A program made the translations under genes and the position numbers. Shown here piece by piece: positions 58,795 through 64,000 of a stretch of DNA of 64,000 nucleotides (positions are counted from its first letter, which is position 1; each line of letters begins with the position of its first letter). The DNA lies in NCBI GenBank assembly GCA_963706365.1, contig OY970150.1, forward strand, positions 1,005,864-1,069,863. The letters are read 5' to 3'. Below the pieces are notes generated by a model. The model made no database searches. It worked only from the letters and a program-made list of their open reading frames with translations, and was not told the DNA's origin. The stretch is from an uncultured Alphaproteobacteria bacterium. Its GTDB lineage: Bacteria; Pseudomonadota; Alphaproteobacteria; JAJTHO01; G963706365.

Positions 58795-59019
58795 TCTCAA
58801 GAGCTTGCGCGGCAACCCACGCATAAGTTGGAAGCACTATATTTTCTGAGAAAATTTTTTTCGAGAAAGGGCGGAATAACGAACTATTTTGTATCTTTTT
58901 CAAAGGGATTTGCAGCGAAAAAGGCGAAATTCTACTTGTGCGTGGTTTTTGGGTAAGCTCTAAGGTGCGTAAAGTTCATATTAAAGATGGAACCATGTTC
59001 ATCAAAACTGGTTGAGTAA

Positions 59020-59148
59020 TATAGTGCTTCCAAAATAAATCCGTGTGGAGGCGAGAGCAAGTAAAATTGAGCGCAGTATATTCTTCATACATACGCGAAA
59101 TTTTGTGCCGCTCGCAGCCCCTCACGGTTTTATTTTGGAAGCACTATA
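59020..59148. repeat. ~128-bp palindromic MITE/RPE-like element, copy 3 (plus a solo terminal fragment at 58829..58848)
   Basis: TATAGTGCTTCCAAAATAAATCCGTGTGGAGGCGAGAGCAAG...CTCACGGTTTTATTTTGGAAGCACTATA. The solo fragment is GTTGGAAGCACTATATTTTC at 58829. Confidence 0.8.
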
Positions 59149-59298
59149 TTTCTGCTAGCCCCCAAGTAAACCCCTTTTCCTCGTTAAAAACATAAAGAAA
59201 ATCAACCAAACCGATAAAAAAGATAAATTTTTATTGTTTTTAAATATAAATCAGGTATTATTGTGATGTAGCGCACAATTATAATCTGATATTATTAT

Positions 59299-60883: not shown

Positions 60884-62035
60884 ATGGCAGGCTTAGGAGA
60901 AAATACCGCATTAACCAATGAGTTGCTATTACGCGCCCTGGAGCCATTCAAGGTTTACTACGATGACCCTGCCAATGAGGAAATTGCCATTAACCGGCCT
61001 GGCGAAATTTTTGTAAAAATTCGTGGCGAAGGCTGGACACCGGTTGAAGTTGAAGCCATTAGCATGAATCGTATTTTTGCCTTGTGCCGCATGCTGGCCA
61101 ATGTAACTGATCAAAGCTTTAACATGAACGCGGTGCCAATCCTGGCCGCAACCTTGCCTGGTGGACATCGGTTTCAAGCTATTTTGGGCCCCAACGTGCG
61201 TTACAGTATGGAAGATACGCACGGCATTGCCATGTGTATTCGTCGGTTTAATGCCGAACACAAATTCCGGTTGGATGATTTCCAGCTAAAACCCGGTGAA
61301 AAGCCAAAACAAATTGAAGCCGCAAAACTGGAACGCAACCAGAAAAAACGTTATTCAGACTTCCCTTACGAAGATCTTATCGGTGCCGTTGATGAAGGGG
61401 AAGCCGTTTTAATTTCCGGTGCAACATCGACGGGTAAAACAACATTCCTGAATGCCCTGGTGGAATATATTCCCCGGGATCGTCGCTTAATTACGGTGGA
61501 AGATACGCGCGAAATTATGGTGCCCCATCGCAATCGGGTACACTTTGTGGTTTCCAGAACAGAATCAGCCAACGCCGTAACCTATACGCATATTTTGGAT
61601 ACTATTGTGCGGATGACCCCTGATATTATTATCTGTGGGGAGATTTCTATTGTGAACTCTAAAAGTATTTATCGTTTGATGACCACTGGCCACTCAAACT
61701 TTATGGCAACCATTCACGCCGAAAGCCCGGAAATGGCTTTACGTGCTTTCTGGCAGAACCTAGCACAGGCCGACCCTGGGCTAGATTCCGAAGCAGCAGT
61801 AGAAATTCTATCTCGCTCTTTTGGCCGTATTGTGCAAATTGACCGTTCCAGCGGCCAGCGCGTTATTACTGCTGTGGATGCACCGAATATTGTAAAAAGT
61901 GCCATTTATAATGCCACCAGAGAAGGGGTAACACCACAAGAGCTTGCAAAACAAAGACAAATCGCTGAAAATGAGGCCTATGCCCTGCAACGCGACGCCG
62001 ACATGGAGAAAAAGTTTGTTGAAGCAGGTAAATAA
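60884..62035 (+). CDS. virB11: T4SS ATPase VirB11/TrbB family
   Basis: 383 aa. Walker A ISGATSTGKTTFLNAL, Asp box ITVEDTREI, Walker B RMTPDIIICGEI, His box TGHSNFMATIHA. Confidence 0.9.
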   Translation: MAGLGENTALTNELLLRALEPFKVYYDDPANEEIAINRPGEIFVKIRGEGWTPVEVEAISMNRIFALCRMLANVTDQSFNMNAVPILAATLPGGHRFQAILGPNVRYSMEDTHGIAMCIRRFNAEHKFRLDDFQLKPGEKPKQIEAAKLERNQKKRYSDFPYEDLIGAVDEGEAVLISGATSTGKTTFLNALVEYIPRDRRLITVEDTREIMVPHRNRVHFVVSRTESANAVTYTHILDTIVRMTPDIIICGEISIVNSKSIYRLMTTGHSNFMATIHAESPEMALRAFWQNLAQADPGLDSEAAVEILSRSFGRIVQIDRSSGQRVITAVDAPNIVKSAIYNATREGVTPQELAKQRQIAENEAYALQRDADMEKKFVEAGK

Positions 62036-62088
62036 TAAGACATTCAAAACAGTATGGTTATTAATGCCTGCTGTTAAAAGGAACTGTT

Positions 62089-64000
62089 ATGGCTAATAAA
62101 GCTGCTGATACTGGTGAGCGCGATGTCGCCATCAAGCACCTTTTAAAAGGGCTGGGTATTGCTATTGCCATTTATCTGGGGATGTTGATTCTTACAACCA
62201 TCAGTTTTGCCTACTGGAAATATGGTGTTAAAGCCGGAACCACAGAAATGGTGGTTGACTATCTCAAGACCATTGTTAACCCCATTAAATTTTACGGCTT
62301 TTACAGTGGCTGGATGGATAACAAGACGTTCGATCAATACGATTGGCGTATTTTTGGTTTTCCAACAGAAATATTTTTTTCTGCCATCAGCGGTATAACT
62401 TTCCTTTTCATCTGGGCAGCCAGCAACCCTGGCTCCTTTGCGAATACTTCTTTGGGGAATGCCCGCATGGCGAAAACCGAAGATATTATGCGGATGAAAC
62501 TGCTGGGTGCTAAAAAGCCATTGATTGTTTTGGGCGAATGGCAAAAGAAATTTTTGATGCTGCCGGAAACCCTTTCCGTGCTTTGTGTTGCCCCACCTGG
62601 TACTGGTAAAACCACCGCTATCGTTATTCCAACTATTTTAACCAACAATGAAGTTTCCATGTTGATTAACGATGTAAAGCCGGAATTATTTGATCAAACC
62701 AGCCATGCACGTTCCAGGCACAGCCATTGCTTCCGTTTGGAATGGGCAGCCTCTGATCAACCGGAAAAAGGCATCTTCTTGCCTCGCTGGAACGCCTTGT
62801 CGCCACTCTCTATGCCACCCAAGGGACCAAACCGCGATTTATATATTGAACGACTTGTCGGTATTATTGTGGAAGAGCCAGAGGGAAATGCTGACCCGCA
62901 CTGGACGAAAAAAGGGCGGGCAACACTGGCTGGTTTTATTCACTACCTGGTCGGTAAATGTGAGTCTGGCAATTATGATGGCTTGCCAGAAGATTGGGTT
63001 GGTAAAGAACCCTCTATTCCCATGTTGCTAGATTGGATGACAGCCTCTATTCGTCGGGCGGAAAAGCAACAGGAAGAAGCCCGCGCCAAGAGTGGCCCCA
63101 TGGCCGTGATGGGGATGGATCCCATGAAAGACTTTTTGCGCAACGCGGCCAACGAAGCCGAAGAAAACGATTATTCAAAACGTGCGGTGATGGAATTAAC
63201 CGCCATTGCCAACACGCCGGATAAAGAGCGTGGCTCTATTCTTTCTACGATGGATAGTGGTTTAATTATTTTCCGTAACAGTGCGGTGCGCGACCGTACC
63301 ATGAAAAGTGATTTTGCTTTCAAAGAATTTCGCGGCATTCAAGACCCGAATACTGGTAAATGGACACCCCTAACGGTTTATATCTGTGTAAACCAGGAAG
63401 ATGCCCGTTCTTTGGGTATTATTACAGGCCTGCTGGTTGAAGCACTGTCTGCCTATCTGGTGGCACACCCGCCAAATGGTACGGCACGAAATGGTGATAA
63501 ACTAGGGCCTTGTGATGTGTTATTTGTGCTGGATGAGTTTCCGCAGATGCCCAAACTACAGGCCTTGATTGATGGCCCGGCTGTGGGTCGTGGTCAGCGC
63601 GTAAGTTATTTGATGATCGGGCAGGATTTGGGCCAGATTAAGGCAAAATACGGTGAAGATGAAATGGAAACAGTGATTTCCACAACCGCGGCCAAAGTAA
63701 TTCTACCGTTGAACAACGAGGTTACCGCAAAACGTTTTTCCGAAATGGTGGGTCAATACACGTTGGAACTACGTTCAAAATCCCGAACCCACGGTTTATC
63801 AAAAGAAACCAACCCCTTTGCCTTTAATATTCAACGTTCGTTACAGGGGCAGCCCTTGCTACGGCCAGAAGACTTTATGTCTATTCCGGCTGGTAAACAC
63901 TATGTGCTTTATCAGGGCAATAAAAACCGTCCTATTAAGTGTGATACCCCTGCCTATTATGCGCATAAAGAACTGAAAAAGTTGGTTTATGCTCCAGCTT
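62089..64000 (+). CDS. virD4: T4SS coupling protein VirD4/TraG family (3' end beyond window)
   Basis: ATG at 62089. Two N-terminal TM helices, Walker A CVAPPGTGKTT, a Walker B-like segment (VLFVLDEFPQM), and a long cytoplasmic domain. The ORF is still open at position 64000. Confidence 0.85.
   Translation, partial: MANKAADTGERDVAIKHLLKGLGIAIAIYLGMLILTTISFAYWKYGVKAGTTEMVVDYLKTIVNPIKFYGFYSGWMDNKTFDQYDWRIFGFPTEIFFSAISGITFLFIWAASNPGSFANTSLGNARMAKTEDIMRMKLLGAKKPLIVLGEWQKKFLMLPETLSVLCVAPPGTGKTTAIVIPTILTNNEVSMLINDVKPELFDQTSHARSRHSHCFRLEWAASDQPEKGIFLPRWNALSPLSMPPKGPNRDLYIERLVGIIVEEPEGNADPHWTKKGRATLAGFIHYLVGKCESGNYDGLPEDWVGKEPSIPMLLDWMTASIRRAEKQQEEARAKSGPMAVMGMDPMKDFLRNAANEAEENDYSKRAVMELTAIANTPDKERGSILSTMDSGLIIFRNSAVRDRTMKSDFAFKEFRGIQDPNTGKWTPLTVYICVNQEDARSLGIITGLLVEALSAYLVAHPPNGTARNGDKLGPCDVLFVLDEFPQMPKLQALIDGPAVGRGQRVSYLMIGQDLGQIKAKYGEDEMETVISTTAAKVILPLNNEVTAKRFSEMVGQYTLELRSKSRTHGLSKETNPFAFNIQRSLQGQPLLRPEDFMSIPAGKHYVLYQGNKNRPIKCDTPAYYAHKELKKLVYAPA

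Follow-up and report, generated by a model that had tools for sequence, protein, structure and literature searches.

A virB10-virB11-virD4 trio behind nusG of an uncultured alphaproteobacterium, with a predicted lipid-anchored, Ig-bearing VirB10

The conserved tRNA-Trp-secE-nusG block is present in a 64,000-nucleotide stretch of contig OY970150.1 from an uncultured alphaproteobacterium (hereafter the window, meaning the whole of that stretch), but nusG is followed there by three genes of a type IV secretion system (T4SS), a virB10-like gene, virB11 and virD4, at the place where rplKAJL normally follow. The locus raises the question of what machine these genes belong to, how they came to lie behind nusG, and whether the unusual N-terminus of the VirB10-like protein is genuine. 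The trio is probably the distal fragment of a split chromosomal VirB/D4-type (P-type) T4SS, and its predicted lipid-anchored, immunoglobulin (Ig)-bearing VirB10 is apparently an undescribed but conserved variant of an alphaproteobacterial lineage.

Gene order behind nusG

The genes concerned are the following.

57794-57869 (+): tRNA-Trp (CCA), opening the conserved tRNA-Trp-secE-nusG block; ARAGORN, and Rfam tRNA at 71 bits
57873-58208 (+): secE; PF00584, E = 9.5e-21
58222-58794 (+): housekeeping nusG (NGN and KOW domains); PF02357, E = 8.6e-29, plus KOW
58795-59298 (unstranded): non-coding spacer of 504 bp between nusG and the virB10-like gene
59299-60849 (+): virB10-like gene, 516 aa, encoding a signal, an Ig domain, a Pro-rich linker, a TrbI barrel and a C-terminal tail
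60884-62035 (+): virB11 traffic ATPase gene, 383 aa; TIGR02788, PF00437, Walker A
62089 to beyond 64000 (+): virD4 coupling-protein gene, with the first 637 of its 732 aa in the window; PF02534

These gene calls agree with the initial annotation, which had placed a T4SS trio directly 3' of nusG where rplK and rplA are usually found: tblastn with queries from a relative gave no match to rplK, rplA, rplJ or rplL anywhere in the 64 kb, and no rplK-rplA pair lies immediately upstream of the trio or nearby. In the relative used for comparison of the region downstream of nusG (metagenomic contig L040, NusG 58% identical), the translated open reading frames (ORFs) are secE-nusG-rplK-rplA-rplJ-rplL, followed by a gene that looks like rpoB. 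Queries from relatives likewise found no VirB3, VirB4, VirB8 or VirB9 in the window, nor the two unnamed genes that intervene between virB4 and virB8, the secretin-derived lipoprotein discussed below, or PilC; the same tblastn matched a lone secretin, and the PilB query cross-matched VirB11. The earlier observation that virB8 and virB9 are missing upstream, so that this is not the Rickettsiales rvh block, therefore holds, the break falling between virB9 and virB10.

Because the three genes lie close together (gaps of 34 and 53 bp) on the same strand, virB10-virB11-virD4 is likely to be an operon. All three ORFs are intact. Their GC content (0.46-0.47) and GC3 (0.38-0.46) lie within the range of other genes of the window (0.42-0.46 and 0.35-0.44, respectively), giving no sign of recent foreign origin. 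The 383-aa ATPase is classed by these profiles as a VirB11-like family member under equivalog level: it scores 202 bits against TIGR02788 (cut-off 250), aligned over profile positions 3-306 of 308, and 84 bits against PF00437 (T2SSE; cut-off 24.9), and has the Walker A motif GATSTGKT. VirD4 matches PF02534 (198 bits), PF12696 (TraG-D_C, 87 bits) and PF10412 (TrwB_AAD_bind, 63 bits), with the Walker A motif APPGTGKT and two N-terminal hydrophobic helices read from the translation. Its full length of 732 aa comes from an independent contig assembled from short reads of this organism (L001, Logan ERR12040027), which differs from the window at 7 positions over 4879 bp. All 7 differences fall within 63174-63862, about 700 bp in the 3' half of virD4, with zero across the 4 kb before that cluster, a pattern that points to heterogeneity among strains or to the presence of another virD4-like copy in the material sequenced.

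A VirB10 with a lipobox and an Ig-like domain

VirB10 is considered the only T4SS subunit to bridge both membranes, and established work in Agrobacterium assigns to its inner-membrane N-terminus the relay of ATP-dependent signals, which originate at VirD4 and VirB11, to the gate in the outer membrane. The VirB10-like protein of the window is built differently at this end.

59299-59358 (+): signal peptide with lipobox L-T-A-C at residues 17-20 (Cys20); read from the sequence
59449-59778 (+): PapD/ASH/HYDIN-type (choice-of-anchor D) Ig-like domain, residues 51-160; PF22544, NF012200, AlphaFold, Foldseek
59779-59844 (+): Pro-rich linker EEPPAPEQQVYIPPAAPAPPSP, residues 161-182; read from the translation, in a region aligned across the family
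60013-60609 (+): TrbI/VirB10 C-terminal barrel, residues 239-437; PF03743, PDB profiles, Foldseek

The C-terminal barrel is unambiguous, matching PF03743 over its full length (profile positions 2-188; 143 bits against a cut-off of 35, E = 1.1e-41), the PDB profiles of ComB10 (2bhv, E = 4e-46) and TrwE (7o3j, E = 5e-32), and, by Foldseek, the R388 O-layer chain 7o3j (E = 3e-14). Two helices inside the barrel of the AlphaFold model (residues 339-361 and 389-412) are predicted at the position of the antenna. Neither NCBIfam equivalog is reached (NF038091, 138 bits, cut-off 220; NF038092, 145 bits, cut-off 300).

The cytoplasmic tail and membrane helix of canonical VirB10 are not present. The sole N-terminal hydrophobic stretch, preceded by an Arg, ends in LTAC, which fits the lipobox pattern [LVI][ASTVI][GAS]C, and a lipid on the N-terminal Cys20 would thus replace the transmembrane anchor after cleavage. 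Reassignment of the start codon cannot restore a standard VirB10 membrane helix, since 59299 is the first start after an in-frame stop and the ORF has no upstream extension; the lipoprotein start proposed earlier is accordingly retained.

Residues 51-160 are modelled by AlphaFold with pLDDT > 90 as seven or eight strands, and score above the gathering threshold of PF22544 (27.1 bits, GA 25.5; HYDIN/VesB-type Ig). The choice-of-anchor D profile NF012200 is matched at E = 3.5e-8 (33.9 bits, under its 45-bit cut-off), and Foldseek returns PapD-like domains of HYDIN and CEP192 (E about 1e-6) as well as MSP domains. The Ig domain with two Cys residues that had been proposed is confirmed as to its PapD/ASH-type fold, its PF22544 membership and its conserved Cys109 and Cys122; the ASH profile PF15780 itself gives 18 bits, under 27. 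Cys109 and Cys122 probably form a disulphide that stabilises the domain. A search of residues 1-200 against 1.84 billion representative proteins gave 7389 matches, almost all of them tandem copies in giant proteins, so that the domain is a common surface-protein module recruited here in a single copy.

Conservation of the variant in related lineages

The lipoprotein, Ig and TrbI architecture is common to about 32 full-length VirB10 homologues (29-47% identity) and to 31 loci found in GTDB genomes. These loci belong to uncultured Alphaproteobacteria, to Holosporales genomes, to Rhodospirillales and to Telmatospirillum siberiense, which is cultured. Each of the 32 aligned homologues has Cys20, Cys109 and Cys122, and a lipobox is present in essentially all of about 58 distinct homologues, the residue after its Cys being Gly in the clade of the window and Asp in the Telmatospirillum clade. 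More distant homologues have either the canonical cytoplasmic tail and transmembrane segment (P0035, P0040 and P0043) or an Ig domain behind a non-lipoprotein signal peptide (P0034). No description of a lipidated or Ig-bearing VirB10 was found in the searchable literature.

The constant core of the relatives' loci is virB10-virB11(-virD4). In 12 of the 31 loci, those of the closest relatives included, VirB8 (PF04335), VirB9 (CagX) and a lipoprotein of 370-475 aa are encoded directly upstream of virB10. This lipoprotein has no Pfam match, but shares 26% identity, over 236 aa, with the N-terminal portion of a relative's secretin, and profile-profile comparison (hhalign) aligns it with secretin over about 285 columns (probability 97.8%, E = 7e-13); by these alignments the lipoprotein between virB9 and virB10 in the clade of the window is secretin-derived. 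One relative (L003) also has a VirB2-like ORF (read from the translation), VirB3, VirB4 and two unknown genes; its operon is chromosomal, as shown by the flanking hemB, marR, lolCE and dnaE genes, and no relaxase is present in that locus context. In a subclade of the closest relatives (L005, L006, L010, L011, L026 and L028), virB8-virB9-lipoprotein-virB10-virB11 is not directly followed by virD4, so that the coupling-protein gene appears detachable in this lineage.

More distant members mix VirB and type IVb-pilus genes, the latter with a lipoprotein secretin of PilN- or MshL-like type. Contig FRDC01002243.1 (GCA_900143125.1; loci L038 and L044) carries a single locus of about 33 kb with, in order, an A24 prepilin peptidase, SLT, TrbC, VirB3, VirB4, two unknown genes, VirB8, VirB9, a 726-aa secretin-like protein, a 191-aa protein, a PilB-like ATPase, a T2SSF protein, five small proteins, VirB10, VirB11, a PilT-like ATPase, VirD4, a glycosyltransferase and another SLT. 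Three of the small proteins (256, 244 and 234 aa) match, by size and position, ORFs of relatives with pilin-like N-termini, and locus L031 has the same gene order. In T. siberiense, contig PIUM01000026 (L036/L037) reads TrbC-VirB3-VirB4-...-VirB8-VirB9-TcpQ-secretin-PilO-...-PilB, the secretin being a PilN-family member (313 bits, cut-off 288), and the trio is on a separate contig, PIUM01000001. In another relative (L034) the trio also stands alone, detached from virB8-virB9. Literature searches found no description of T4SS/type IVb-pilus hybrid loci or of a Holosporales T4SS of such a kind. The distribution of these genes suggests that the lineage ancestrally joined VirB and type IVb-pilus genes and that the clade of the window lost the pilus genes and reduced the secretin.

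The suggestion that the trio may represent a distinct T4SS subtype is thus supported, since the lipoprotein, Ig and TrbI design is conserved in a whole lineage, neither a one-off nor a start-codon artefact, and since the loci of that lineage include a secretin-derived lipoprotein and, in distant members, a full set of type IVb-pilus genes.

Palindromic repeats around the trio

The spacer between nusG and virB10 is dominated by palindromes, one of which belongs to a dispersed element.

59015-59153 (unstranded): full copy of a dispersed palindromic element of about 140 bp, resembling miniature inverted-repeat transposable elements (MITEs) and Rickettsia palindromic elements (RPEs); 44-nt arms, fold z-score -10
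11857-11989 (unstranded): second full copy of the element, intergenic, between gcvP and the lone secretin gene
34305-34447 (unstranded): third full copy of the element
58800-58965 (unstranded): imperfect long palindrome right after nusG; RNA fold -61.6 kcal/mol, z = -4.8

The arms of the copy upstream of virB10 are 84% complementary, and its predicted RNA fold has a free energy of -70 kcal/mol. The other two full copies are approximately 91-92% identical to it, and the window has 6 occurrences of its 16-nt terminal motif where 0.06 would be expected. The initial annotation had described about 500 bp of non-coding DNA with one full and one partial palindromic element, and this is borne out by the 504-bp spacer, nearly all of which is repeat-derived; the "partial" copy (58828-58844, the element's terminal motif, an exact 17-nt repeat termed D1) sits in the left arm of the imperfect palindrome at 58800-58965, which is joined to the full copy by unique sequence (58966-59014). 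By blastx, the spacer holds no remnant of rplK, of the lipoprotein gene that intervenes between virB9 and virB10, or of any other T4SS gene, the sole match being due to the element.

The element occurs about once per 20 kb, with multiple copies per 64 kb, and is intergenic everywhere; further copies lie at the ends of two short-read contigs (L001 and L039). In being short and multi-copy (three full copies in 64 kb), with terminal inverted repeats and a stable hairpin, it has the features of MITEs and RPEs, with which it also shares dispersal at about 140 bp, long inverted ends, a mostly intergenic position and presence at synteny breaks; unlike them, it is related in sequence to none of the Rfam families. 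In the copies at 11857 and 34305, the inverted arms start TATAG... and finish ...CTATA/CTCTA, ends that would be compatible with a TA duplication. The third copy covers the first 23 codons of a mechanically called ORF (33414-34373, minus strand), which has either a mis-called start or an element inside the 5' end of a gene. Besides this element, the sequence past the nusG stop (GAGCTTGCGCGGCAACCCACGCATAAGTTGGAAG...) resembles that past the virD4 stop (GAGCTTACCCGAAAACCCACGTATAAGTTGAAAA...), as seen by comparing window positions 58795-59298 with positions 5167-5281 of L001, and there may be a second repeat family, or a composite repeat, at the 3' ends of genes in this genome.

A probable split operon

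A search with the VirB9 profile identified a VirB9 (P0167, 514 aa, CagX domain, 58% identity) on the same 1,867,446-bp contig as the VirB10, VirB11 and NusG of the window. On short-read contig L039, the C-terminus of virB8, which matches the C-termini of the family, is followed by virB9 and then by the palindromic element, 33 bp past the virB9 stop, where the contig ends. Contig L001 starts inside the element 5' of virB10, at window position 59122, and finishes in element sequence about 55 bp past virD4, so that all three visible edges of T4SS fragments abut the element. In a neighbour-joining tree, the VirB10 of the window nests in the clade with the order virB8-virB9-(secretin-derived lipoprotein)-virB10-virB11(-virD4), which makes its separation from virB8-virB9 a derived state.

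These results suggest the following history. The order found in the clade would be ancestral; the operon would have been broken, leaving virB8-virB9 elsewhere and the trio behind nusG; and recombination at the palindromic copies of about 140 bp would be the cause, rearrangement at dispersed repeats being the most likely explanation of the separation. The window fits either direction of movement, in that the T4SS genes may have come to nusG or rplKAJL may have left it. An insertion mediated by palindromic repeats, as first proposed, has circumstantial support in the element copies 5' of virB10, 3' of virD4 and 3' of virB9 and in the derived separation, but what stands behind nusG is the distal third of a fragmented operon and not a self-contained inserted module. 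Likewise, the remaining virB genes that might have been sought beyond position 64000 are in part accounted for by virB8-virB9 elsewhere in the genome; immediately beyond the window, virD4 is followed by the element about 55 bp on, and a word-seeded search returned no VirB4 of this genome.

By established knowledge of these families, VirD4 is a coupling protein, VirB11 is a hexameric ATPase, and VirB10 is an envelope-spanning subunit of the outer-membrane channel. If the scattered genes function together, VirD4 would recruit substrates, VirB11 and VirD4 would energise transport at the inner membrane, and VirB10 and VirB9 would make the outer-membrane cap. VirB10 would be tethered by its lipid and would have no cytoplasmic segment, so that the usual contact of its N-terminus with VirD4 would be impossible and coupling would have to pass through other components; the periplasmic Ig domain may, speculatively, serve as a docking or spacer ring toward VirB9 or the secretin-derived lipoprotein. 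The likeliest role of the system would be to deliver effectors into a eukaryotic host, given that in one relative the operon is chromosomal, lies among housekeeping genes and shows no relaxase.

Several points weigh against this reading. No VirB4 on the 1.87-Mb contig was among 80 family members retrieved with the VirB4 of a relative, in a word-seeded search that may miss a divergent copy, and the equivalent search did recover a VirB9 on the same contig. To our knowledge VirB4 is indispensable for every known T4SS, and the system may be incomplete, which without a VirB4 would make it non-functional, or its VirB4 may be too divergent or absent from the database. The secretin-derived lipoprotein expected between virB9 and virB10 was not located for this genome. 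A scan for promoters and terminators found no sigma-70-like promoter on the plus strand of the spacer and nothing above chance on the coding strand. The join of nusG to virB10 has no second confirmation, the short-read assembly breaking in the repeat, and the lipidation and membrane location of VirB10 are predicted. Since the element is so frequent and is intergenic everywhere, its presence at the junctions fits, but does not prove, repeat-mediated rearrangement.

Alternative explanations

An unlikely alternative, but one to be taken seriously, is that the trio and the distant virB8-virB9 are decaying remnants of a fragmented T4SS that no longer works. The failure to recover a VirB4 is the main reason for retaining it, a reason tempered by the word-seeded search, which could overlook a divergent copy; the broken operon, the usual virB9-virB10 lipoprotein gene that adjoins neither fragment, the nearby decay of a type I secretion system HlyD gene (now two ORFs) and the promoter-less upstream region on the coding strand all point the same way. 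Scattered T4SS genes nevertheless work in Rickettsiales (PMC2653234), and the same split is found in free-living Telmatospirillum. Moreover, VirB9, VirB10, VirB11 and VirD4 of this genome are full-length (383-732 aa) and keep their motifs and family-invariant residues, the C-terminus of virB8 is like that of the family, and, in a genome of 1.87 Mb, reading frames of this length are rarely kept intact unless selection maintains them.

Rather improbable, as judged from gene content, is that the partner of the trio is a secretin-based machine of the outer membrane, similar to that of type IV pili, instead of, or beside, a classical VirB7/9/10 core, in which case a VirB10 free of the inner membrane would dock by its Ig domain on a secretin or on the secretin-derived lipoprotein. 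The relatives whose trio lies amid a lipoprotein secretin, PilB- and PilT-like ATPases, a T2SSF platform protein, pilin-like proteins and an A24 peptidase, all carried by the contig that also has VirB2/3/4/8/9, are consistent with such a machine, as are the secretin derivation of the lipoprotein upstream of virB10 in the clade of the window and the position of the window's lone lipoprotein secretin (12058-13818) next to a copy of the element. That secretin, however, is only 22-24% identical to the T4SS-linked ones and aligns with the lipoprotein of the window's clade (clade A) at 13% hhalign probability; VirB9 is kept, which argues for a normal O-layer; and gene neighbourhood by itself is no proof of a single machine. 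A bolder form of the idea, which we consider equally doubtful, would make lipid-anchored Ig-VirB10, VirB11 and VirD4 a portable trio plugged into a secretin-based type IVb-pilus apparatus, a true hybrid nanomachine, of which the organism of the window might keep a stripped-down, scattered version consisting of the trio, virB8-virB9 and possibly the secretin at 12058-13818. If this were true, outer-membrane passage and envelope coupling would no longer need a membrane-spanning VirB10.

Recent acquisition of the trio as a mobile island, either an integrative and conjugative element or a plasmid fragment, beside tRNA-Trp and secE-nusG is very improbable and largely refuted. VirD4-containing T4SS genes are typical of conjugative elements, tRNA genes are often integration sites, and repeats do bound the trio; but its genes lie 3' of nusG instead of beside the tRNA, the region has neither an integrase nor a relaxase nor direct attachment-site repeats, the GC and GC3 of the trio match the genome, the bounding repeats are the genome's own dispersed element, and VirB10 nests among chromosomal operons of related lineages. 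A false assembly join of nusG to virB10 at the repeat, to which the break of an independent short-read assembly of the same organism at 59122 might point, is hardly plausible, given that the element is just about 140 bp and should be easily spanned in an assembly yielding a single 1.87-Mb contig, that the unique sequence at 58966-59014 links both palindromes, and that L034 likewise has the trio apart from virB8-virB9. The split chromosomal T4SS thus remains the preferred explanation of the trio.

Comparison with known systems

The split system of the window is closest in its core to the P-type (MPF-T) systems of Agrobacterium (VirB/VirD4) and plasmid R388 (Trw): its VirB10 has the barrel with antenna, with TrwE (7o3j) as best structural match, virB11 and virD4 follow in the same order, and relatives carry TrbC/VirB2, VirB3, VirB4, VirB8 and VirB9. 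Canonical VirB10 is bitopic in the inner membrane and extends through the whole core complex, from its inner-membrane ring up to the outer membrane (PMC4027160), whereas that of the window has a lipobox signal instead of the tail and transmembrane segment, plus the inserted Ig domain. In the relatives, the 370-475-aa secretin-derived lipoprotein takes the place of the small VirB7, and the proteins of the window score under the equivalog cut-offs that NCBIfam sets for VirB10, ComB10 and VirB11. The best sequence match of the C-terminus is to ComB10 of the Helicobacter pylori ComB DNA-uptake T4SS (NF038092, E = 2.5e-42; 2bhv, E = 4e-46), but 145 bits is far under the equivalog cut-off of 300, the barrel alone is matched, and the system of the window, unlike ComB, has VirD4 and VirB11.

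The rvh system of Rickettsiales is a chromosomal VirB/D4-type T4SS scattered over several loci, with a B8-B9-B10-B11-D4 block (PMC2653234). It resembles the system described here as a scattered chromosomal VirB/D4 system in a reduced alphaproteobacterial genome, with B8-B9-B10-B11-D4 as the ancestral distal unit. It differs in that the genome of the window has its break inside this block, between virB9 and virB10, in the lipoprotein/Ig N-terminus of VirB10, and in the affinity of the window's lineage, which groups with genomes of uncultured Alphaproteobacteria and Holosporales and with Telmatospirillum rather than with Rickettsiales. Duplicated B4, B6, B8 and B9 genes are a hallmark of rvh.

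Lipoproteins with secretin N-terminal-type domains are known from T4SS outer-membrane complexes, namely VirB7 of Xanthomonas (N0 domain) and DotD of Legionella (PMC3093366, PMC2951367). The secretin-derived lipoprotein encoded between virB9 and virB10 in relatives is analogous, but is much larger (about 285 secretin-profile columns) and was not found in the genome of the window; furthermore, VirB10 itself is predicted here to carry a lipid, a feature that the searchable papers do not report for those systems.

The pilus and transfer genes of the IncI plasmid R64 form separate gene sets. Its MPF-I T4SS has the VirB10 homologue TraO and the VirB11/PilT-like ATPase TraJ, and occurs beside a type IVb thin pilus of the PilN type whose secretin is a lipoprotein (PMC4027160). 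The loci of relatives similarly combine VirB10 and VirB11 with a type IVb pilus, and the Telmatospirillum secretin is of the PilN family. In contrast with R64, the alphaproteobacterial relatives interleave the pilus genes with bona fide VirB3/4/8/9, and none of the pilus genes accompany the trio of the window.

Other features of the window

The lone lipoprotein secretin gene (12058-13818, plus strand; 586 aa, lipobox LSSC, Secretin_N_2 and Secretin domains) sits between gcvP and a DEAD-box helicase gene, and a copy of the element directly precedes it. Among NCBIfam profiles it matches MshL best (224 bits, slightly short of the cut-off of 250), and the 64 kb hold no further pilus or type II secretion genes. 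The gene may be one more dispersed part of the T4SS/pilus lineage; that it is orthologous to the T4SS-linked lipoprotein is not claimed, on account of the hhalign probability of 13%.

A giant RTX protein (2267 aa, 20 matches to hemolysin-type Ca-binding repeats) is encoded in the region 16844-29877, and behind it lie genes for type I secretion, which encode an OmpA-like protein, a TolC-like OEP and an ABC exporter. In this region the gene for the membrane-fusion protein HlyD is in two ORFs (28656-29030 and 29212-29877) and is possibly a pseudogene; it was not split by insertion of the palindromic element, since the gap does not fold and is no copy of the element. The remaining features of note are ordinary:

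57546-57622 (-): tRNA-His; ORF listing, tRNA search and profile scans
8840-8922 (+): glycine riboswitch aptamer (Rfam, 55 bits), upstream of gcvT-gcvH-gcvP
9193-11863: gcv region reported alongside the riboswitch

The gcvT ORF as called is short (223 aa) and covers Pfam profile positions 55-255 only.

Implications for the lineage

The locus shows dispersed palindromic repeats coinciding with the break-up of both the conserved secE-nusG-rplKAJL-rpoBC arrangement and a secretion operon in a reduced genome. Automatic secretion-system callers would label such loci as "incomplete T4SS" plus "incomplete type IV pili", and both labels have been reported for Holosporales (PMC9992710). The finding also points to hybrid T4SS/type IVb-pilus loci in relatives of the organism, of a kind for which the literature searches returned no description. 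A whole lineage would have exchanged the membrane anchor of VirB10 for a lipid and an Ig domain, with a secretin-derived lipoprotein replacing VirB7, and these two changes together imply that the ATPases are coupled to the channel in a different way. As Telmatospirillum siberiense is in culture, the variant is open to structural study.

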